IMG/VR virus record: IMGVR_UViG_3300037076_000477
Span: 1-31,291 of that record
DNA length: 31,291 bases
Reading direction: 5' to 3' (one strand)
Source: a virus
Lineage: Duplodnaviria; Caudoviricetes
Under the pieces are notes generated by a model that was not told the origin of the DNA, ran no database searches, and was given only the letters and a program-made list of their open reading frames with translations. Numbering within the stretch: the first letter of the stretch is position 1; every line of letters begins with the position of its first letter. Both the position numbers and the translations under genes were made by a program. Of this stretch, positions 337 through 28,829 are shown piece by piece.

Positions 337-413
337 AAGTCAGGCCTATCCATTTTAATTCTATAACCCATTGTGAGGACAAACAGCGCAAATATTAATA
401 GTAAGATCGTCAT
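330..413 (-). CDS. Small hydrophobic peptide (27 aa), not in ORF track
   Basis: Reads MTILLLIFALFVLTMGYRIKMDRPDLW*. Its ATG overlaps the RT stop (ATGA) and its end overlaps the start of ORF 1..336, which suggests translational coupling. Confidence 0.4.
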   Translation of the reverse strand: MTILLLIFALFVLTMGYRIKMDRPDLW

Positions 414-1408
414 CCGGCTACCTCTAAAATATTTTTAATATTTCTCATAAACTTTTCTGAATTGCAATGTTTACAAAGTCCGTTCAGACTCGCAAGCGAT
501 TTCTGTATTTTATCCATGCCAATATTTACTTTAACAAATTTCTTGAACTTTCTAATGTTCTTAACCATCACTCTTTTTCCTAAAATTCTATGTTGCGGAA
601 ATTGTCTATAGCCAAGAAAATCAATCCCGCGCTTAATGTTAAAAACAGATGTTTTCTTATTTAATGTTAACCTCAATTCTGTATTCAGAAAGTTTCTAAT
701 CTCACTTAACCAGACCCACAGTTGCTTCTTATTTTTACTTAGAATAATCATGTCGTCCATGTACCGTACATAGTGTTTAATTCTTAAGGTCTCTTTAATA
801 AAATGATCAACTTGATTCAGATATATATTCGCAAATAATTGGCTTGTTAGATTTCCAACGGGAATACCAGGATTGTCGGTTGAATCGATAATTACATTTA
901 GAAGATTTAATGTTTTCTTGCATCTGATTTTCCTTTTTAGCAACTTCTTTATGGTTGCATGATCAATTGAATAAAAATATTTTTGTATATCCATCTTCAA
1001 GCAAAACACTTCTTCATTTCTCAGTTCCTTTTTTACAAATTTCTCAACTCGTTTCACTCCGGCTATTGTTCCTTTGCCTTTCCTGCATGCATAAGAATCA
1101 CTTATAAAAGTGTTCTCAAATAACGGCTCTATTACCGCGCATATTGCCTGGTGAACTACCCGGTCTCTGAATGGAAGAGCCAGAATCAATCTTTCCTTTG
1201 GCTCCCTGATAATAAATTCATTATATCGCGATGGTTTATAAGTCTCATAAATCAGTTCATTTTGTATCGTTATAAGATTTTCTTCCAGATTACTTGCAAA
1301 CTCCATTACCTCGTACTTGAACCGCTTGTTTCTTTTTGCATTCAGAAAAGCTTTGTGCAGATTGTTGAACTCAAATATTTTCTCATAAAGGTTGTTATAT
1401 GTTTTCAA
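410..1408 (-). CDS. DGR reverse transcriptase
   Basis: 332 aa with RT motifs (FRDRVVHQA, KMDIQKYFYSIDH, GIPVGNLTSQLFANIYL with the DGR-type SQ, YVRYMDD, GIDFLGY). No maturase or endonuclease domain. Next to TR and avd. TTG start. Confidence 0.96.
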   Translation of the reverse strand: MKTYNNLYEKIFEFNNLHKAFLNAKRNKRFKYEVMEFASNLEENLITIQNELIYETYKPSRYNEFIIREPKERLILALPFRDRVVHQAICAVIEPLFENTFISDSYACRKGKGTIAGVKRVEKFVKKELRNEEVFCLKMDIQKYFYSIDHATIKKLLKRKIRCKKTLNLLNVIIDSTDNPGIPVGNLTSQLFANIYLNQVDHFIKETLRIKHYVRYMDDMIILSKNKKQLWVWLSEIRNFLNTELRLTLNKKTSVFNIKRGIDFLGYRQFPQHRILGKRVMVKNIRKFKKFVKVNIGMDKIQKSLASLNGLCKHCNSEKFMRNIKNILEVAG

Positions 1409-1565
1409 TAAAGGTCCCGCGCGCGATATTGTCCAGTATGTCGGTTACTAACCGCACGCAAGAGCACGAATATTTTTGACGGTTATTTATCGTCAAGGTC
1501 ATTGTCTCCTTTTGTTCATTGCTCTGTTTTAATTCCTTGAAATTAAAATTCTGGCTATAAATAAG
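1409..1565 (-). other. DGR spacer (TR-RT) with small hairpins, likely structured template RNA
   Basis: Inverted repeats CGGTT-act-AACCG (1442-1454) and TTGACG-N9-CGTCAA (1476-1496). The position matches the spacer RNA required for priming in the Bordetella BPP-1 DGR. Confidence 0.55.
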
Positions 1566-1674
1566 AGCGACCCGGAAGCCGATGTTGTTGTTCGCATTGC
1601 CTCGTTCATTGTTGAGGTTCAGGGCACGAAGCCCGGCATTGGCACCATTGTTCCAATTGCCGCCGCGGATCGGA
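1566..1674 (-). repeat. DGR template repeat (TR)
   Basis: 109 bp with 27 adenines on the coding strand, in 11 AAY codons, one GAA, one CGA and two ATC. Matches VR1 and VR2 except at adenines (one exception in VR2). Confidence 0.96.
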
Positions 1675-1698
1675 TACCGTATTTGTTGCAGACATAAC

Positions 1699-2028
1699 CT
1701 ATGCACTTTTTATCCATCCCCCCAGCATCTTGCCGATTTCTGTGAGTTGCCTGGATAAAATTTCGTATTGTTTCAGATTCAATAGCTTAAGATCTTTTGC
1801 TATTCTAATTTTGAATCTTAAAAGATCAAGTTTTATATCAGCTTCGAATAAATATTTCTTTTTGTCCCGCGATTTATTCGCGGTTAAAAAGAGTGACAGC
1901 ATTTCAAAGAACTCATTTCTTATATCTGCGGCCAGAACAAACTTTTCCGATTTTGGAAAGTAGTTCAGGGCATTATGCAGATATTTGAAACAATCAATAC
2001 ACTTTTCAATAATTAAAAGATCACTCAA
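1699..2028 (-). CDS. avd: DGR accessory variability determinant (four-helix bundle)
   Basis: 109 aa, basic, with FPKSEKFVLAADIR and EIGKMLGGWIKS motifs. Lies between target gene and TR. Confidence 0.92.
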   Translation of the reverse strand: MSDLLIIEKCIDCFKYLHNALNYFPKSEKFVLAADIRNEFFEMLSLFLTANKSRDKKKYLFEADIKLDLLRFKIRIAKDLKLLNLKQYEILSRQLTEIGKMLGGWIKSA

Positions 2029-2084: not shown

Positions 2085-3254
2085 TCACCAAACAAAAGCG
2101 ACCCGGAAGCCGAGGCCGTAGTCCGCACCGCCTCGTACATCGCCGAGGTGCAGGGCACGAAGCCCGGCATAGGCACCATCGCCCCAATTGCCGCCGCGGA
2201 TCGGAATAGCCTCAATACCTGTATTGCTCCAGAAATAATCGTCAAGAACAGATCCGGTTGCGTATAACATTAATGTTTTTAATAATGCCACTCCTGCACA
2301 TGAAGATGAGACACTTGCATCGCAGGTAAAAGATTCAAAAGGATGCGCGTTACTTGTTGCACTTGTAGTATCACTAATCTGGCCAGCAGCATTGACCTTT
2401 AATGTATGCGCAGTACCAGGGGGAACTAAACTACCGTCTTGTAATATTGCTTTCCATAACAAAGAAGAAGAAGAAACATCCGCTAATGGATTGGCCGCGT
2501 CATTGTTGGGAATGATATTGATCTCCCCGTTGTTAAGCCTCATGCCTTTATTCCATTCCCAAACGTTACCATTCAAATCTCTGATACCATAAGCACCATC
2601 ATGCGCAGTTGTAACTCCGCCGGAGCCAGCCAACCACCTTGCAGGCGAAGTGCCATTTACAAAGTTTGCCGAATCTCCCGGTTCCCACATTCCCATAATA
2701 GTCCCAACAGACCAGTCCCGGCCAAAGGCATTGTTACCTTTGACTTCAGTTGATCCCATAATGTTTTTAGATACCAAACAGATGGCCGCCCATTCTGCGT
2801 TGGTTACCATGTGGAATCCGTTTATTGTTGTACCATTATTCAAAGAGTCGCAGGTTGCATTTGCATTATCAAAATTTATCGATTGCGCAACCAAGCCGCT
2901 TGCCTGAGTTACTGCATGCCCGCCTAAATAAGATGCCTCATATTTGCCTATAAAGATTCTTTTCCTTACGCCATTAACTGTAAAGGCAGGATGCAATGAT
3001 GTTGAAGAAAATCCACTTGTCGCGTCCCAATTAAAAGCGGGAATTTCTACCATTTCATGGTAGTTCCCGTTTTTATCATAGATCAACCAATTGTTATGGC
3101 CAAGATTTGTACCGGGGGATGCTTGAACAAATACGGCGCTATCAAGTCTTGCCAAGTGAGCTTGAATAGCATCTATTGCTTCCATCAACTGTGCATTTGC
3201 AAAACCTGATATAAGCAAGATTATAAGTAAAGACATTTTTATAATATTTTTCAT
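2085..3254 (-). CDS. DGR target protein 1, C-type-lectin (FGE-sulfatase-like) fold with N-terminal signal peptide
   Basis: Motifs IGKYEAS, TNAEW, DLNGNVWEW and RGGxW...GFR. VR1 at the C-terminus. N-terminus MKNIIKMSLLIILLISGFANA|Q looks like a Sec/SPI signal. Confidence 0.92.
   Translation of the reverse strand: MKNIIKMSLLIILLISGFANAQLMEAIDAIQAHLARLDSAVFVQASPGTNLGHNNWLIYDKNGNYHEMVEIPAFNWDATSGFSSTSLHPAFTVNGVRKRIFIGKYEASYLGGHAVTQASGLVAQSINFDNANATCDSLNNGTTINGFHMVTNAEWAAICLVSKNIMGSTEVKGNNAFGRDWSVGTIMGMWEPGDSANFVNGTSPARWLAGSGGVTTAHDGAYGIRDLNGNVWEWNKGMRLNNGEINIIPNNDAANPLADVSSSSLLWKAILQDGSLVPPGTAHTLKVNAAGQISDTTSATSNAHPFESFTCDASVSSSCAGVALLKTLMLYATGSVLDDYFWSNTGIEAIPIRGGNWGDGAYAGLRALHLGDVRGGADYGLGFRVAFVW
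2097..2205 (-). repeat. DGR variable repeat VR1
   Basis: Ungapped match to TR over 109 bp with 16 mismatches, all at TR adenines (11 A>G, 3 A>T, 2 A>C). Confidence 0.96.
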
Positions 3255-3255
3255 T

Positions 3256-3738
3256 TTAATTACCTTCCATTTTAATTGTTAATATCGGATTACCTGTGCC
3301 ATATATTTTATAATATAATTTTGTGGTGGGGGGTTTTAACTTTGAGTTCCAAATTTGCCCTGGTAAAAGAATATTCTTATCAGTGGCCGGATAACCACGA
3401 TGTTCGCTATAGCAGATTGTATCATCTGCAGTAATGCTATAACTCCACCAACTTGTAACCGGGGGAGATACCGAATCTCCACCAGCTGATATGGTTGTAT
3501 CATAGCCGCCTGAGTAAGGAGCGAGATTAACTATAGCGTCAATGTAACCGCCGATCACGAAAACATTCTTCCCGGTCCATGCACCCGATGCAGATTTAGT
3601 ATCAGTAGATGCCTTTGAAGAAGATAGACTCTCTATAGGAGTCATTTTTACGAAGGTTGAATCAAAACCATTAATGGTTTGTGCCTGGGTTAAACCACTT
3701 ATAAGTAATAATGGTATTAATAATAAAAGCGTTTTCAT
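3256..3738 (-). CDS. Hypothetical secreted protein
   Basis: Probable start MKTLLLLIPLLLISGLTQA|Q (ORF track starts at 3774). Mature part is S/T/G-rich. Confidence 0.7.
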   Translation of the reverse strand: MKTLLLLIPLLLISGLTQAQTINGFDSTFVKMTPIESLSSSKASTDTKSASGAWTGKNVFVIGGYIDAIVNLAPYSGGYDTTISAGGDSVSPPVTSWWSYSITADDTICYSEHRGYPATDKNILLPGQIWNSKLKPPTTKLYYKIYGTGNPILTIKMEGN

Positions 3739-3754
3739 TTTATTCCTCATGATT

Positions 3755-4024
3755 CTATTTTCCAAAATCTTCATAATTTAATTTTTGTTGAGTGCAAAGG
3801 TTTCGTAGGTTATGCTCCATGCGGTTTAGCTGAAGAGTTTCAGCATCTTTTACAGTTTTTAAGCTTTTAATTTCTTCTTCATTGACGGAAATTCTGAGTG
3901 CATTTGTCCCCCAGGTAACTCCAATAACGAATATAAAAGCTATTATTGTTAGGACCGCCTGGCCAAAGGTTAATACGTTTTTTGTACCTATTGATGTTCT
4001 TTTTTCTTCTGTATATTCTTCCAT
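3755..4024 (-). CDS. Small membrane protein with coiled-coil tail (lysis-associated?)
   Basis: One TM segment followed by a helical charged C-terminus. Located after the lysis genes. Confidence 0.6.
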   Translation of the reverse strand: MEEYTEEKRTSIGTKNVLTFGQAVLTIIAFIFVIGVTWGTNALRISVNEEEIKSLKTVKDAETLQLNRMEHNLRNLCTQQKLNYEDFGK

Positions 4025-6087: not shown

Positions 6088-6386
6088 GATAAATTAGGTT
6101 TCAGTCTCCAGACGATTATTCCATAATCCGTTCTGTATTTTTCTGAAAGTCTCCAGGTTACATCCCTTAAAACGAGAGTATTATTCTGCAGGGGTTTATA
6201 ACTATCATAATCAGAGGCTTTCATTTCAATAATATTCTTGTAATCTTCGAATCCCATATCAACCATTGTCTGATCTTCATAGTCAGCAAAGTAGTTGATG
6301 ATAATTGAACCGGATTTGGAAGCGGTTGTTAAGACCGCTTCCTCTTCCATTCCTGTATTAAAATTTTCTTGTGAAAAATCTAACAT
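6084..6386 (-). CDS. Putative head-tail joining protein (gpFII-like)
   Basis: 100 aa, beta-rich, in the head-closure position. Confidence 0.5.
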   Translation of the reverse strand: MLDFSQENFNTGMEEEAVLTTASKSGSIIINYFADYEDQTMVDMGFEDYKNIIEMKASDYDSYKPLQNNTLVLRDVTWRLSEKYRTDYGIIVWRLKPNLS

Positions 6387-6874
6387 TAGTGGTTCTTCTT
6401 CCAGAGATATAATCCAAAATCAAAATCAGTCAGTACATTACCTGTGGTCCCAAAACATCGGACTTTGTAATAGGCATAATGCTTCGAATTAAGAGTCAAT
6501 TCTTTATAGATCGTTGTAATTGAACTATCTTTATAAAGCATTGTGTCGACCGTGGTGTAGTGACCATCATAGGTGTTGGATCCTAGCAGCTCTATGCTTA
6601 CTTTCTGATGGGAAGCAGTACCTCCGGACAGCAATCCACTGAATGTGAATCCCGGATTAGTGTCTCTGTCATAATCAGCAAAAAATAAATTTGTACTGAT
6701 TAGGGTGTCTTTAGTACTATCGATAGTACCTGAGAACATAAAAAGTTGTCCTTCAGTCTGAATAGATTTCACACTGGCATTTTTATTCCAGGATGACGTT
6801 TGGGCGTTTACCTGGGGACTTAAGGACAGAGCCAGTAATGAAATGAACAGCAGCACAAACAGATAGAGTTTCAT
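6386..6874 (-). CDS. Hypothetical protein with signal peptide inside the head module
   Basis: N-terminus MKLYLFVLLFISLLALSLSPQVNA|Q. Stop/start overlaps with both neighbours. Confidence 0.7.
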   Translation of the reverse strand: MKLYLFVLLFISLLALSLSPQVNAQTSSWNKNASVKSIQTEGQLFMFSGTIDSTKDTLISTNLFFADYDRDTNPGFTFSGLLSGGTASHQKVSIELLGSNTYDGHYTTVDTMLYKDSSITTIYKELTLNSKHYAYYKVRCFGTTGNVLTDFDFGLYLWKKNH

Positions 6875-17954: not shown

Positions 17955-18581
17955 CTATACTCTTGACAGTTCATGCGCTAACCTTTCATCATATACATTG
18001 TAGAATACATCAGTCATTTCCTTTATTACCATACTGTTGCCTGACTTAGGATCGATAAGTTTGGTAATGTCAACACCAAACATTTCTTTGATCCCTGAAC
18101 CTTTCTCATTAGATTTACGAATGAATACTCCGACATGTCCACTCTTCATAGTCTGGACGAAGGATCCTCTTGATCCATCATTACTCCGATAGACTACTCT
18201 CTTACCTACTTCAACTTCTGCCTTGACACCCCACTTACCGTTCCCTCCAGTCTTTGGGTTCTTCTTCAATCTACCTGACTTAGTATATAATGCAGGTCTA
18301 CCTGCATGACCCATCTGGGTGGCATTGAACTTGTATAAAGCGATATCACCTTTAGTTATCTTGATTGTAACTACTGGGTAGTTCTTATCTGCTTTACGTA
18401 CGATCTTAAACCTTAAGTCAAGATCTTGTTTTCTTATCTTGTACCGCTCTCTGATCAGTGCACTGGCTGCAGTAATGGCAGATGAAGCGGCTCTATTCAT
18501 TGCACTAACACTTGCATTATCAATCTGTTTACCCAGATCTACAAATATCGATTTGTAACCATCCCGGATATTGTTAGACAT
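17955..18581 (-). CDS. Minor tail/tail-completion protein Z-like
   Basis: Basic 208 aa with AMNRAA...IRERYKI and FVQTMKSGHVGVFIRK...IKEMFG. Confidence 0.65.
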   Translation of the reverse strand: MSNNIRDGYKSIFVDLGKQIDNASVSAMNRAASSAITAASALIRERYKIRKQDLDLRFKIVRKADKNYPVVTIKITKGDIALYKFNATQMGHAGRPALYTKSGRLKKNPKTGGNGKWGVKAEVEVGKRVVYRSNDGSRGSFVQTMKSGHVGVFIRKSNEKGSGIKEMFGVDITKLIDPKSGNSMVIKEMTDVFYNVYDERLAHELSRV

Positions 18582-18582
18582 T

Positions 18583-18813
18583 TTAGTATCTCATATAATT
18601 GGTTGACTTTCTCTGATCACGATTCTTAGGACAAGTATCAAAGTGTTTCTGCATTGATAGTGCTTCATAAGGAATGATTAAACCCATCGCTAAAGACCTC
18701 CTCTCTTCGATATTTAAGTATGATTTATTGACCGGAATATTCTTTCCTTCTTTATTTCTTATGAATACTATCTCCGCTTTACATTCCCTGCAGTATGTGT
18801 AGTACTGTTTCAT
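18583..18813 (-). CDS. Small zinc-binding hypothetical protein
   Basis: CRECKAEIVF...GKNIPVN...HFDTCP. Confidence 0.7.
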   Translation of the reverse strand: MKQYYTYCRECKAEIVFIRNKEGKNIPVNKSYLNIEERRSLAMGLIIPYEALSMQKHFDTCPKNRDQRKSTNYMRY

Positions 18814-19034: not shown

Positions 19035-20085
19035 CTATTGCCTCACTCAATTCCTGTTCAAATTCTTTTTTCTTTCGTTTGTATTCCTCTGAGTCTTTGT
19101 CAATTACTGGAATCTTTTTGATAGGCTCTGCAGTGGGTTCATCAAGATATTTATTCTTTCCGCCGGTAATATCGTTAAATGTACCCTTCCACTTGTTAGG
19201 GTTGGTATTACTGGCCATTACCTGTATTTCCTCTTTTTTCTTCAAAGCTTCATCTTTTTCTTTCTTGGTGGCTATATCGCGCTTCATACCCTCAATCGTT
19301 TTGAGCACATAGGCAACAGTGCATTTATCCTGCCTGGTTGCCTGTGCAAAGGCATCCCGGGCAATTCTAAGGTTTTCTGCATTGGTTCTATCCGATTGAT
19401 CCATAACAATCGTTTTCTTGATATCATCCACCAGGGAGAAATGGGGAGTCTTTGAAAAGTAGGTTATGAAAAGCTTTCCGATTTCTGAATCCAGATCCGG
19501 GATTTCTTTCTCAACAGATCCGGGAGGAGCAGGGACCGGTTTCTTTTCTTCTTCTACTGCTACATTAGGTTTGCTATAGGCTATAATAGGTAATGGCTGA
19601 TCATTTTGAGCAATGGATTGATCATTTTGAGCGGCCGGCCGTTCATTTTGATCAGGTAACTCATTTACCTGATCATTTTGAGCGGCTAATTCTTCATCAA
19701 AAAGGCTATTTTGATCATGTGACAAAGTTGGCTGATCATTTTGATCAGGTAATTTATCACCCTCTTCTTTAAGATAATTGATGAATTTTTTACCCATTGT
19801 ATACCATTTTGTAAGATCATTAGCTCTTCTATTGAAGTTACCTGATTCTATCCACCCTTCCTTTTCAAGGTCCACCATCCATCTTCTGATAGAACTTGCA
19901 TTGAGATACGGATAAACTTCTTGTAGAGCGGAACTACTATCATACATCCAGTAATTCCCATCTCTGTAATTTTTCATATTCTGTTGATTATATTCTACAA
20001 AGAATTGAATTCTACCTAAGAGTAGTGATTTTTCGATACCTACTTTACATGCTAATTTCTTTTCGAAAGAATGGTGACTATTCAT
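19027..20085 (-). CDS. Phage replication initiator (replisome organiser)
   Basis: N-terminal winged-helix type domain (DGNYWMYDS...YPYL...IRR...GNFNR...TKWYT) and central QNDQ repeats encoded by DNA iterons. Confidence 0.8.
   Translation of the reverse strand: MNSHHSFEKKLACKVGIEKSLLLGRIQFFVEYNQQNMKNYRDGNYWMYDSSSALQEVYPYLNASSIRRWMVDLEKEGWIESGNFNRRANDLTKWYTMGKKFINYLKEEGDKLPDQNDQPTLSHDQNSLFDEELAAQNDQVNELPDQNERPAAQNDQSIAQNDQPLPIIAYSKPNVAVEEEKKPVPAPPGSVEKEIPDLDSEIGKLFITYFSKTPHFSLVDDIKKTIVMDQSDRTNAENLRIARDAFAQATRQDKCTVAYVLKTIEGMKRDIATKKEKDEALKKKEEIQVMASNTNPNKWKGTFNDITGGKNKYLDEPTAEPIKKIPVIDKDSEEYKRKKKEFEQELSEAIGE
19598..19746. repeat. Iteron array, probable phage replication origin
   Basis: TGATCATTTTGA(G/T)C-type copies at 19598, 19619, 19640 (variant), 19670 and 19733, plus a partial copy near 19708, inside the initiator gene. 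Confidence 0.75.
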
Positions 20086-24790: not shown

Positions 24791-24821
24791 TGAATCCTCA
24801 TTAAATTGTTTAGAAAACTAG

Positions 24822-24894
24822 TAGCGGAGGCAGGACTTGAACCTACAACCTCCGGGTTATGAGCCCAGCGAGCTGCCATTTGCTCTACTCCGCG
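24822..24894 (-). tRNA. tRNA-Met (CAT), initiator type
   Basis: Sequence CGCGGAGTAGAGCAAATGGCAGCTCGCTGGGCTCATAACCCGGAGGTTGTAGGTTCAAGTCCTGCCTCCGCTA. C1:U72 mismatch, A11:U24, and three G:C pairs in the anticodon stem. CCA not encoded (CTA follows). Confidence 0.93.
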
Positions 24895-25675: not shown

Positions 25676-25764
25676 AATGACTCCGTTTGTTTGCAGATTA
25701 AGAAACTTTTAATATTTACCAATCAATAAAATTAAAAACAGAACACCAGAGGACAGTAACCAGA

Positions 25765-26847
25765 TCAAAGAACAAAAGCGACCCGGAAGCCGATGTGGCC
25801 GTTCGCACCTCCTCGTCCACCGTAGAGGTTCAGGGCACGAAGCCCGGCACCGGCACCATCGTTCCAATAGCCGCCGCGGAGCGGAATAGACTCACCATTA
25901 GTATCAAACCAGAAATAATCGTCATGAGGTCCTGTTACCGATGGGAATATGGTCAGCTTCTTTAGTAGTTCAACACCGGCACAATCAGGGGAAACATCAT
26001 CAGCGCATATTGTATCTTTGAAAATGTGGCCGCTCCAGTTTCTTTTGGTAAATTTTGATATTCTTCCTTCATCATCAAATTTCAAAGCGCCTTCCGTACC
26101 TGGTTCTACCAAAGTTCCGTCTTCAAGTATTGCTTTCCATTGTGAACTTGATTTAGAAACATCGATTAAAGAAATAGCGGAGTTATTGTCAGGGATAATG
26201 TTTATTTCGCCGTCATTCAGGCGTAAGCCTTTGACCCATTCCAAAATATTCCCATTCAAATCATATATCCCGGATTCATTTCCGTTGTGCGAAGTTACAA
26301 TTCCTCCAGACCCGGCAAGCCATCTAGCCGGAAAACAATTATCTTTGAATTCTTTTTGATACGGTTCATGCATCCCCATAATAGTTTTAGATGAGAAGTC
26401 TTTACCATAGCGATTATTTCCCTGGACCCTGACTCCATTCATCACCTGATGGGAAATTATGGTAAGAACTGCCCATTCTGTATTTGAAATAAGATGGAAC
26501 CCTGTTATTGAGGATCCGTTATTCAGATCATTGCATGCCTGGTTTGAATTATCGAAGTTGATTGAATGAGCGACCATGCCGTTCTTTTGAATAACATATT
26601 TACCATCAAGAATTGAAGCCTGATATTTTCCAATAAATATTCTTCTTAATTTTCCATCGACAATGAAGGCGGGATGTGGATGAAAAGTATTCCCCATTGC
26701 ACAAAGGAATGTGGGTATTTCCACCATCTCATGTTGATTACCATATTGATCTAGTATCAGGTAATTGTCTTTTAAGCCGTTAACCGGTTTAATGTTTTCT
26801 GGCAATTCAACTTTGCTTGCAGCAGTTCCATTTTGTTCTTCGTTCAT
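25765..26847 (-). CDS. DGR target protein 2 (remote), C-type-lectin/FGE-like fold, no signal peptide
   Basis: Full-length paralog of 2085..3254 (HEMVEIP, HPAF, IFIGKY, WLAGSGG, DLNGN.WEW-like, DDYFW) with VR2 at the C-terminus and a charged N-terminus. Confidence 0.92.
   Translation of the reverse strand: MNEEQNGTAASKVELPENIKPVNGLKDNYLILDQYGNQHEMVEIPTFLCAMGNTFHPHPAFIVDGKLRRIFIGKYQASILDGKYVIQKNGMVAHSINFDNSNQACNDLNNGSSITGFHLISNTEWAVLTIISHQVMNGVRVQGNNRYGKDFSSKTIMGMHEPYQKEFKDNCFPARWLAGSGGIVTSHNGNESGIYDLNGNILEWVKGLRLNDGEINIIPDNNSAISLIDVSKSSSQWKAILEDGTLVEPGTEGALKFDDEGRISKFTKRNWSGHIFKDTICADDVSPDCAGVELLKKLTIFPSVTGPHDDYFWFDTNGESIPLRGGYWNDGAGAGLRALNLYGGRGGANGHIGFRVAFVL
25777..25885 (-). repeat. DGR variable repeat VR2
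   Basis: Ungapped 109-bp match to TR with 15 mismatches: 14 at TR adenines and one synonymous C>A (GGC>GGA at 25810). Confidence 0.95.
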
Positions 26848-27041
26848 TTATTCTCCGTGTTTTGTTTATTAATTGGTGAATTTATTGTCTCTCTAATGAT
26901 GCCTTGAGGTTGATTATTCTTATTAGCATTGGCTAATAATTCAGATAATTTCAATTCTTCAGCTTCATCTAATTTACTAAAGGTTTCGATAAAGGATAAT
27001 TGAAGTTCTCTCCATGCTCTTTTACTAAGATCATCCTGCAT
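26844..27041 (-). CDS. Hypothetical protein
   Basis: 65 aa, overlapping its neighbours. Confidence 0.55.
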   Translation of the reverse strand: MQDDLSKRAWRELQLSFIETFSKLDEAEELKLSELLANANKNNQPQGIIRETINSPINKQNTENK

Positions 27042-27327
27042 CAGCTATCTTCCTTCGTAACGAATCCCTGTGTACATATCTGTCTGTTGATTCAACCATT
27101 TTGTCAATATCTTTTTTGGCTATCCATCTCTCACCGCGTATCTCAACAAAAACGAGTAAACCGGTTTTAATAAATTTCTCTTCAAAAGTATTTCTGCTAA
27201 CATTCAACCGGAAAGATGCCTGATTATAATTATAAAGATCCCGCTCAGAGCTTAACCTTAATATTCTTCTGACTTCCTTTTGGAAGATTTCCATCTGCTT
27301 CTTTTCCAGTAATGTTAACCCATCCAT
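27031..27327 (-). CDS. Excisionase-like HTH protein
   Basis: LYNYNQASFRLNVSRNTF...I..G.L...RWIAKKDIDK fits the HTH_17/Xis pattern. Confidence 0.6.
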   Translation of the reverse strand: MDGLTLLEKKQMEIFQKEVRRILRLSSERDLYNYNQASFRLNVSRNTFEEKFIKTGLLVFVEIRGERWIAKKDIDKMVESTDRYVHRDSLRRKIADAG

Positions 27328-27328
27328 A

Positions 27329-27772
27329 TTATCCTTCCTTAATCTCTTTTATCATTTTATCAAGCTTGCTACAGATAGAGTTTTTTATTATCTCAAGTAC
27401 AGCGATCATCTGAGGCCTTTCTTCTTCTGTGAATTTTTCATCTTCTCCTATTTCCGATACTTTTAAGTTCAGCAGCTCCAGTTGATGAAATAGCGTAACT
27501 TCAATTTCTCTACAGGAAGAGTTCAGGTCCTTCCATGCCTGGGAAGGTTCACGGATTAAATTTTCTTTTCTTAACAGATCTTTTACTTCCTCATAGAAGC
27601 CAATAGAGAAGTTTGTAGAGATGTTCATGGCATAACTAAATGCCTGGGGAGTCATTTTAAGTTTCCTAGCTATAAAAGCATCAGAGATTTCCGGATGTGC
27701 CAGTTTCACTGCAGCAATCATTGCTTTGAGTTCTTCCTGGTATTTCTGATTCAAATTCTGTACTTCAGTCAT
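27329..27772 (-). CDS. HTH regulator (CII-like position)
   Basis: ISDAFIARKLKMTPQAFSYAM HTH, with a C-terminal helical DEKFTEEER segment. Confidence 0.55.
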   Translation of the reverse strand: MTEVQNLNQKYQEELKAMIAAVKLAHPEISDAFIARKLKMTPQAFSYAMNISTNFSIGFYEEVKDLLRKENLIREPSQAWKDLNSSCREIEVTLFHQLELLNLKVSEIGEDEKFTEEERPQMIAVLEIIKNSICSKLDKMIKEIKEG

Positions 27773-27832
27773 TCCATACTTCCGTAATTAATTTTGATAT
27801 GGTTTATAATAGTTTTTCATATCACATGTGAT

Positions 27833-28039
27833 TTAGCTTTGCTTAGGTTCTTTTGATTTATCTTTTGGGATCAGTATCAGTACATCTTTCCCATCGATTG
27901 TGTCCCGGAAGATTTCAACAGGATCTCCTTTTTCGAGCCCATTATCTGAGGAAAAGACTTTAGGAATAGAGAGTGCAAGCCCTCTTACTCCGTAAATTTG
28001 TGCGCTATGTTCGGCTATTTTGACCATTGTCTCTATCAT
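27833..28039 (-). CDS. AbrB/MazE/SpoVT-like DNA-binding protein
   Basis: GVRGLALSIPKVFSSDNGLEKGDPVEIF...VLILIP swapped-hairpin pattern. Confidence 0.7.
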   Translation of the reverse strand: MIETMVKIAEHSAQIYGVRGLALSIPKVFSSDNGLEKGDPVEIFRDTIDGKDVLILIPKDKSKEPKQS

Positions 28040-28056
28040 TTTAATAAATACTTATG

Positions 28057-28111
28057 CAAATATATACATTTTATTTTCTTTGTCAAGTAGAAATGTATAA
28101 TAATGTATATA
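28057..28111. promoter_or_regulatory. Divergent lysis/lysogeny switch: leftward promoter and candidate operators
   Basis: Minus strand TTGACA (28086-28081), then TATATTTG (28064-28057). Inverted TATACATTT (28063-28071) / AAATGTATA (28091-28099), plus AATGTATATA (28102-28111). Confidence 0.6.
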
Positions 28112-28142: not shown

Positions 28143-28829
28143 ATGAATGCATTATTTTGTATTACTATGAATTGGCAAGAATTTATTAACGATATTATGA
28201 GAGCGCGGAGAATTTCTGAAATGCAATTAGCCCAACTCTCTGGCATTACCCAGCCAACTATTCATAGATTGCGTAGAGGTGAAACTGAAAGGCCAAATCA
28301 AACAACAATTCGATTACTTGAGGAATCACTAAATATTAAGATTGAAGATTCAGATCCTGATGATATTAAATATGAGCCAAATCCAATGACTCAGGAACGT
28401 TTTGATAAATTACTTCAGGATGGATTAAAATTACAAGATGCTCTCCTGGTTAGAGAGTATCCATTATTGGCAACGGTTTATGCAGGTGAGCCAGCTATGT
28501 TAGAACATGTACATTATGACGAAAAGGCAGTCTTTGCTTATGACAAACAAGATCATACTTGTTTCGCTCTGAGAGTTTCCGGGAAAAGTATGGAGACAAC
28601 CTTAAGAGATGGTGATATTGTATTAGTTGATATCAGCATACCTATAACAGATGGTTGTCTTGTGGTAGTAAAACTCCGGGATGGATCTCAACTTATCAAA
28701 AGATATCATAACCTGGATGAGGTCTATATAAAATTGACATCTGATAATCATGAATACGGAGTTAGGTTAGTCAAGAAAGAAGATATCCAGGTATGTTATC
28801 GGGTTGTAAGTATTAATTTTTTCTTATAG
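28143..28829 (+). CDS. CI-like repressor (XRE HTH plus S24 peptidase)
   Basis: LAQLSGITQPTIHRL HTH; FALRVSGKSM, GDIVLVD and LIKR. Start may be 28167. Confidence 0.92.
   Translation: MNALFCITMNWQEFINDIMRARRISEMQLAQLSGITQPTIHRLRRGETERPNQTTIRLLEESLNIKIEDSDPDDIKYEPNPMTQERFDKLLQDGLKLQDALLVREYPLLATVYAGEPAMLEHVHYDEKAVFAYDKQDHTCFALRVSGKSMETTLRDGDIVLVDISIPITDGCLVVVKLRDGSQLIKRYHNLDEVYIKLTSDNHEYGVRLVKKEDIQVCYRVVSINFFL

Follow-up and report, generated by a model that had tools for sequence, protein, structure and literature searches.

Why does a phage keep a second target gene of its DGR 24.1 kb away from the template repeat (TR), i.e., in its early region, and what might the encoded protein do there? 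The initial annotation took the gene for a hypervariable ligand-binding protein made early inside the cell. In the following, the window refers to the whole stretch of DNA that was analysed (31,291 nt).

Phage, layout and host

The window holds most of a temperate, lambdoid-like prophage. Integrase and a CI-like repressor are encoded on the plus strand, and the minus strand forms a single long run that leads from early, replication, packaging, head and lysis genes to target 1, avd, the TR and the reverse transcriptase (RT). Record G001 represents the same phage (one mismatch, at position 18719, in the stretches compared) and extends beyond the RT into tail genes including the tape measure. Head genes and tail genes are separated by the DGR cassette and the lysis genes. 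The tail genes of G001 are followed by a second integrated element (L015:11947-19282) with an integrase, a small HTH gene and a 928-aa protein that is possibly a primase. Within the window, a gpZ/Neck1-like tail-completion gene (17955-18581, minus strand) lies upstream of the terminase and far from the tail module, and the early operon includes a tRNA-Met(CAT) gene (24821-24894, minus strand), which immediately precedes a 689-aa ParB-like gene. The replication-initiator gene contains, at 19594-19759, short repeats of direct and palindromic type that are likely origin iterons.

Sequencing runs with DNA of this phage are labelled peat metagenome. With regard to the host, signal peptides that end before Gln point as a rule to the FCB group. 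Together with a T9SS sorting domain found at the edge of G002, a related record, such signal peptides make an FCB-group bacterium the probable host. A scan of GTDB genomes for the host gave a single distant match.

The DGR cassette and its two VRs

The cassette shows the order target-avd-TR-RT and comprises, together with its two VRs, the following features.

410..1408, minus strand: intact DGR reverse transcriptase (PF00078; phrog_1423, 1e-127), with VGNLTSQ and YMDD motifs
1566..1674, minus strand: TR, 109 nt with 27 A
1699..2028, minus strand: avd, beside the TR (PF22296; NF033474 with 119.5 bits, cut-off 80)
2097..2205, minus strand: VR1, 109 nt; 16/27 A and 0/82 non-A positions differ from the TR
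25777..25885, minus strand: VR2, 109 nt; 14/27 A and 1/82 non-A positions differ from the TR

Beside the DGR-type RT (its GxxxSQ motif is what we take to be the mark of DGR RTs), we thus find avd, adenine-specific TR-VR pairs and a difference between VR and TR at the 3' end. TR, VR1 and VR2 align without gaps across all 109 nt. The adenine bias of VR2 is pronounced (Fisher p=1.6e-9), and its sole non-adenine change, C>A at 25810 (GGC>GGA), is synonymous, which agrees with the initial annotation's description of VR2 as a TR copy altered at 14 adenines and one synonymous site. The TR has 14 variable codons, none of which can become a stop codon, and encodes about 7e14 amino-acid variants. A search for a third VR in the window and in the tail extension of G001 found none.

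The two VRs were also said to have been diversified independently. Among the 21 TR adenines that are changed in VR1 or VR2, 17 differ between the two, which bears this out, and both peptides quoted for the VRs are exact.

Nearly all non-adenine bases are common to VR1 and VR2, and the codons of the TR suit both paralogs by descent. Both observations fit a by-product or allele store, i.e., a VR2 that is passively rewritten, may swap alleles with VR1 and is under little selection. There is a possible parallel in the Roseburia phage Shimadzu, where orf43 carries a VR2 and both VRs are active: in the accessible part of that report, its VR2 alleles appeared less selected than its VR1 alleles (Cornuault 2019, 10.1101/575076). 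We nevertheless regard a mere by-product as rather unlikely, given the 17 discordant adenines, the strong purifying selection on the whole scaffold of target 2 (dN 0.21-0.27, dS above 2) and the non-coding 3' tract, which is retained in all remote copies examined.

Divergence of the two targets outside the VR

Target 1 and target 2 are 54% identical. Outside the VR, 548/963 nt (57%) and 162/321 aa (50%) agree. The contrast with the VR itself is most visible at third positions of conserved codons, which match in 60/152 cases outside but in 23/24 cases inside. That is, the paralogs are clearly diverged except at the non-adenine positions of the VR, as had been claimed. A recent duplication, which would show as uniform identity and was named beforehand as a case that speaks against the claim, is excluded by the low identity and the third-position mismatches outside the VR.

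A misassembly that joins two distant regions was the other such case. One 29.4-kb contig covers VR1 through VR2, and the same layout occurs in 10 other records. The window may itself derive from the run of this contig, so the runs with this DNA are not independent of it. Considering the contig, the other records and the 57% identity together, an artefact of either kind, i.e., misassembly or recent duplication, has a negligible probability.

In the VR2 region, record G001 and the contigs from runs X1 and X2 that cover it show no difference from the window, a comparison that concerns contigs only. Likewise, cluster members that are near-identical to three of the orthologs described below show no VR difference in the four that cover the VR; these are possibly the same strains. 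Run X1 also includes a low-depth 237-nt contig that aligns with window positions 25774-25925 and 2070-2209. It carries an extra VR-like sequence, with changes mostly at adenine positions, that matches neither VR1 nor VR2 and probably stems from a third related phage or a minor variant.

Target 2 and its position in the early operon

The remote gene and its surroundings are as follows.

25765..26847, minus strand: target 2, a 360-aa stand-alone TaqVP-like protein of CLec/FGE fold (phmmer against PDB 5VF4, E=2e-43; phrog_2889, 3e-75)
26844..28039, minus strand: four early genes upstream of target 2, encoding an AbrB-like protein of 68 aa, a 147-aa protein, an HTH_17-like protein of 98 aa and a 65-aa protein
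28059..28086, minus strand: match (11/12) to a sigma70-like promoter at the head of the early operon, judged by consensus only; matches in this region do not exceed those in shuffles
28143..28829, plus strand: CI-like repressor (HTH and S24)

The homology of target 2 to TaqVP (5VF4) spans nearly the full length (profile E of 8e-124) with the VR at the C-terminus. TaqVP is described as a monomeric, FGE-type C-type-lectin fold with solvent-exposed variable residues in the part of the publication available to us (PMC6328139). An AlphaFold model of target 2 from a 6-row alignment reached a pLDDT of 29.7. Only 32 residues precede the core of target 2, and they contain no hydrophobic leader (N-terminal hydrophobicity 0.36), where signal-peptide calls for both targets combine hydrophobicity with judgement by eye.

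Target 2 is the fifth gene of an operon that is divergent from the CI-like gene. Given this arrangement and the promoter match, its expression on induction or infection is likely. The initial annotation had labelled the neighbours AbrB/CII/Xis-like. Of these labels, AbrB (AbrB/MazE-like) holds (PF04014, 8.7e-6), Xis is backed by a weak HTH_17 match only (E=0.002), and CII, assigned to the 147-aa gene, is unsupported: PHROGs and NCBIfam give nothing in its favour, and Pfam returns one irrelevant weak match. None of nine early-region proteins of the window was matched by PADLOC, and there is no clear methylase beside target 2 in the window. Compared to tail fibres or Mtd, target 2 differs in its early location, its short stretch before the core and its lack of a shaft. 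The tail genes of the phage sit past the RT, as seen in G001.

The cassette-side target

By contrasting target 2 with the virion module, the initial annotation implied that the paralog beside the cassette belongs to that module.

2085..3254, minus strand: target 1, 389 aa (phrog_2889), with a signal-peptide-like N-terminus (hydrophobicity 2.92)

The contrast between the two locations turned out weaker than implied, because target 1 lies between lysis genes and avd, starts with the signal-peptide-like stretch and has no tail-fibre shaft. The window's cassette target may, judging from the sequence, be exported rather than a tail protein. In the late region, signal-peptide-like leaders ending in Ala-Gln are found in target 1 as well as in the two small proteins encoded at 3256-3774 and 6386-6874 (all minus strand). 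For the 172-aa protein encoded next to target 1, an Atlas search gave no named family.

Recent retrohoming in an unrelated phage

Record G002 comes from the same collection and runs. It represents a Mu-like phage, with a transposase, a transposition protein and a portal and protease of Mu type. In a BLASTP comparison of ORFs of at least 80 aa, its overlap with the window phage is limited to the RT, both targets, a single gene of the lysis region and a weak match in the tape measure. The RT proteins are 93-94% identical, and on the DNA level RT and avd are about 89-90% identical (window 410-2028 vs. L018:10567-12198 of the Mu-like phage). This suggests, on sequence grounds, that the DGR core may have been exchanged fairly recently between unrelated phages, i.e., lambdoid-like and Mu-like ones. 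The remote target of G002 (369 aa) is located 23 kb from its own TR among replication and methylase-like genes, with a methylase-like gene directly upstream. Its ortholog of target 1 is a 999-aa protein fused to a tail-fibre shaft (phrog_5240).

We compared for each phage the VR2 with its own TR. The two TRs differ at 7 non-adenine positions, at which VR2 carries the base of its own TR in 7/7 cases for the window and in 6/7 for G002, where the exception is located at the 5' edge. Outside the VR, the synonymous sites of the two remote genes are saturated (pS 0.75, dN 0.22), while those of the RTs are not (dS 0.68); the dN/dS row of target 1 was out of register and excluded. The remote genes must therefore have split long before the TRs. 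Since they still carry the alleles of their own TR, each has been overwritten after that split, i.e., retrohoming is recent.

The presence of orthologous target 2 genes in two unrelated DGR phages from the same runs could also reflect superinfection exclusion or phage competition, with target 2 binding proteins of incoming related phages or the precursor of a host receptor. Its binding surface is templated by the same TR as that of the host-facing target, which would suit such a role. The layout suggests, however, that the CI-like repressor would shut the operon in a lysogen, and target 2 has no export signal. Among the functional readings considered here, we rate this as the least probable.

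Family survey and origins of remote targets

In a 61-row quick tree, five short proteins (59-68% identical) cluster with target 2; they come from the 120 listed among its 237 homologs. The resulting six-member clade is well supported (SH-aLRT 99-100) and sister to the cassette targets of the window and G002. Genomic context is visible for three of its members (window, G002, L020). In L020, the ortholog is flanked by a homolog of the AbrB-like gene and one of the HTH_17-like gene, i.e., it has the same neighbourhood as in the window; L020 and L021 are too short to include a TR.

We further surveyed 99 records with a member of the TaqVP-like family, the only family covered, which comprise 49 of 80 loci and 50 records chosen with preference for long contigs; many are fragments and some near-duplicates. 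An RT is present in 62 of them (29/49 and 33/50). In 9/99 records, from about five lineages, a further copy of full length lies far away from the one at the cassette, so that, together with G002, the layout recurs in related prophages, a survey of which had been proposed. The distance of this further copy to the TR is 27-37 kb in the eight records with a TR (G096 ends before it), and all 8 testable remote copies show an adenine-specific VR with respect to their own TR (p from 1e-5 to 3e-12). Among four near-identical relatives, 11-15 of the last 45 residues of the remote protein differ, compared to 5-18 of the preceding 255. Restricted to RT-bearing records of at least 90% completeness, 5/17 have a remote copy, so the latter is dispensable in many phages.

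The second match of G065 (short, stop-interrupted, no VR), the tandem adjacent copies in G086 and G087 and the split match of G074 were not counted, and the row of G067 was too short for the tree. In G086 (C1:62790-64814) and G087 (C1:6233-8257), the two full-length paralogs stand in tandem in records in which no RT was found. G054 (C1:3528-4081) shows four TR/VR-like repeats in tandem between target and RT, possibly multiple templates.

The nine surveyed remote copies form their own clade (support 100). A single clade of all remote copies is rejected (AU p=0.0006; 41 rows, VR removed, LG+G, fast search, 5000 replicates). The family has therefore acquired an early-region target on at least two occasions.

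Among 36 hand-picked neighbours in 6/9 records, we find replication initiators, helicase loaders, methylases, Mom-like, MazG-/MazF-like, SSB and resolvase genes plus a single amidase; families of head or tail genes are absent from this set. Methylase or Mom-like genes are located near the remote targets of several relatives.

These observations bear on a rival reading in which target 2, despite the displaced position of its gene, is another adhesin or receptor-binding subunit of the virion that would join target 1 on the tail or head, or replace it there. Target 2 belongs to the same family as the cassette targets, of which the G002 copy is fused to the fibre shaft and that of the window has no such shaft. 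The early operon is also co-directional with the late genes, so target 2 could still be present at assembly, and cassette-side relatives are equally short (22-27 residues before the core), such that shortness alone cannot exclude a virion role. Egorov and Atkinson as well as Baykov et al. interpret second targets as receptor-binding proteins in the text accessible to us. On the other hand, remote copies are located among non-structural genes in 11/11 records with context (window, G002 and the 9 others) from two origins, and by eye they have neither the N-terminal helix motif nor the shaft of cassette copies. A displaced adhesin is thus improbable in our view, even if it comes first among the alternatives.

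3' signals without a hairpin

At the 3' end of VR2 and beyond the stop codon, one further feature is of interest.

25728..25776, minus strand: 3' end of VR2, IMH-like, followed past the stop codon by a pyrimidine tract of CTG repeats; a GC hairpin is absent

VR1, VR2 and four related targets have one common 3' end, distinct from both TRs, which we consider a putative IMH. The CTG tract closes with a common T-rich motif and no GC hairpin at 2046-2084 and 25728-25764 (minus strand) as well as in L017, L018, L020 and L021. Within 80 nt of the stop codon, none of the six targets of the target-1/2 clade has a GC stem (MFE -0.3 to -3.2), compared to a perfect GC stem of at least 5 bp in 22/25 other targets, remote ones included. 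For BPP-1, a GC-rich hairpin of 7-10 bp with GRNA loop, located 4-34 nt after the VR, is required and, according to the available text, nearly always present (PMC3240598). Pairing of the TR's 3' spacer with the VR's 3' tract was considered and rejected: the longest complement averages 6.7 nt vs. 6.3 nt when shuffled (mean over 70 cassettes).

Relation to known systems

Distal second targets among non-structural genes have already been published several times (Wu 2018, Cornuault 2019, Benler 2021, Dahlman 2025), as far as the accessible texts go. In Wu 2018 (PMC5758913), many phage DGRs have a non-adjacent target, within 50 kb, in addition to an adjacent one. The distal target that Benler 2021 (PMC8008677) describes for Quimbyvirus (ORF80/84) is non-structural, lies among methylases and is proposed to act in conflict; Dahlman 2025 (PMC12629997) proposes the same role for distal second targets, from other families, in four induced prophages. 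The method of Roux 2021 misses remote targets, by its own account in the part available.

According to these descriptions, Quimbyvirus, the Dahlman prophages and Shimadzu resemble the window in that one TR serves a cassette-side target and a distal one outside the structural module, the latter near replication or methylase genes and with a counter-defence role proposed. The window's remote target differs from those of these gut phages, as described, in that it is a full-size paralog (360 aa) of the TaqVP family, belongs to a phage from a peat metagenome with a probable FCB host, lies on the cassette strand and is free of a GC hairpin. The accessible descriptions of the DGRs of Wu 2018, Toutatisvirus and the Faecalibacterium two-VR phages (10.1101/2024.10.15.618418, PMC11792537) also show an adjacent and a non-adjacent target in the same prophage; early-operon placement and separate origins are absent from them.

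TaqVP, from a Thermus aquaticus prophage, belongs to the same family with a C-terminal VR, and the window's cassette copy shows the same target-avd-TR-RT order; in the text available, TaqVP is a cassette-side target, in contrast to the remote, early target 2. To BPP-1 (mtd-avd-TR-brt) the window is similar in cassette order, adenine-specific mutagenesis, AAY-rich TR and IMH/IMH*-type 3' difference. As far as described, BPP-1 has one target, a trimeric tail protein, and its required hairpin, in contrast to two targets and no hairpin in the window. New are the target protein family, the two origins, the hairpin-free VRs and the signal-peptide-like start of the cassette target; Table S1 of Wu 2018 may list the family. 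A literature search, with subscription papers mostly outside its scope, returned neither function tests of distal DGR targets nor reports on the short-ortholog clade.

Role of target 2

That a DGR cassette can send its copies to targets in trans is established, and it fits all of the sequence evidence. Following the BPP-1 model, RT and Avd would reverse-transcribe TR RNA, and the cDNA would home in trans via the common IMH-like 3' end and the CTG tract. Target 2 would then be made early in lytic growth and stay cytoplasmic, where its variable surface may bind host proteins, presumably of a defence or regulatory kind.

Target 2 is a second DGR target, and we see an even chance that it is an early, soluble CLec-fold binder of such fast-changing host proteins. 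This explanation builds on the intact RT, avd and TR, the adenine-specific VR2, its recent overwriting from its own TR and the purifying selection on the scaffold. To these it adds the operon divergent from the CI-like gene, the lack of an export signal and the old, separate lineage of the gene. The missing export signal and shaft along with two independent placements among non-structural genes favour the soluble intracellular binder, and we rank it above the displaced adhesin, the by-product or allele store, and phage exclusion, in this order. Against it stands that no ligand or partner gene indicates a specific host target and that the window's copy has no flanking counter-defence gene. The equally short cassette-side relatives, the shared direction of early and late genes, the many family members lacking a remote copy and the weaker selection on VR2 alleles in Shimadzu also count against it. 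With regard to the initial annotation, the true second DGR target, its independent and recent diversification, early operon, lack of a signal peptide and TaqVP-type fold are all supported; binding inside the cell stays at the strength given above.

More tentatively, and as a view we would call doubtful, temperate phages may repeatedly have recruited a copy of a DGR-diversified adhesin domain for counter-defence, as an antibody-like protein that acts inside the cell and is encoded in the early operon; here, homing would be hairpin-free and one template would serve both sides of the membrane via an exported and a cytoplasmic target.

The roles of distal targets are proposed rather than tested in the accessible text of publications on them. 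The comparative evidence presented here supports the view of the remote gene as a maintained DGR partner, which travels with the DGR across unrelated backbones, was recently re-templated and has at least two origins in one family. Since TaqVP is a soluble monomer with solved structure, libraries of VR2 would lend themselves to direct display or pull-down. If target 2 binds host defence proteins, it would represent a hypermutable phage counter-defence. Hairpin-free homing at 24 kb would inform both DGR target recognition and DGR engineering.
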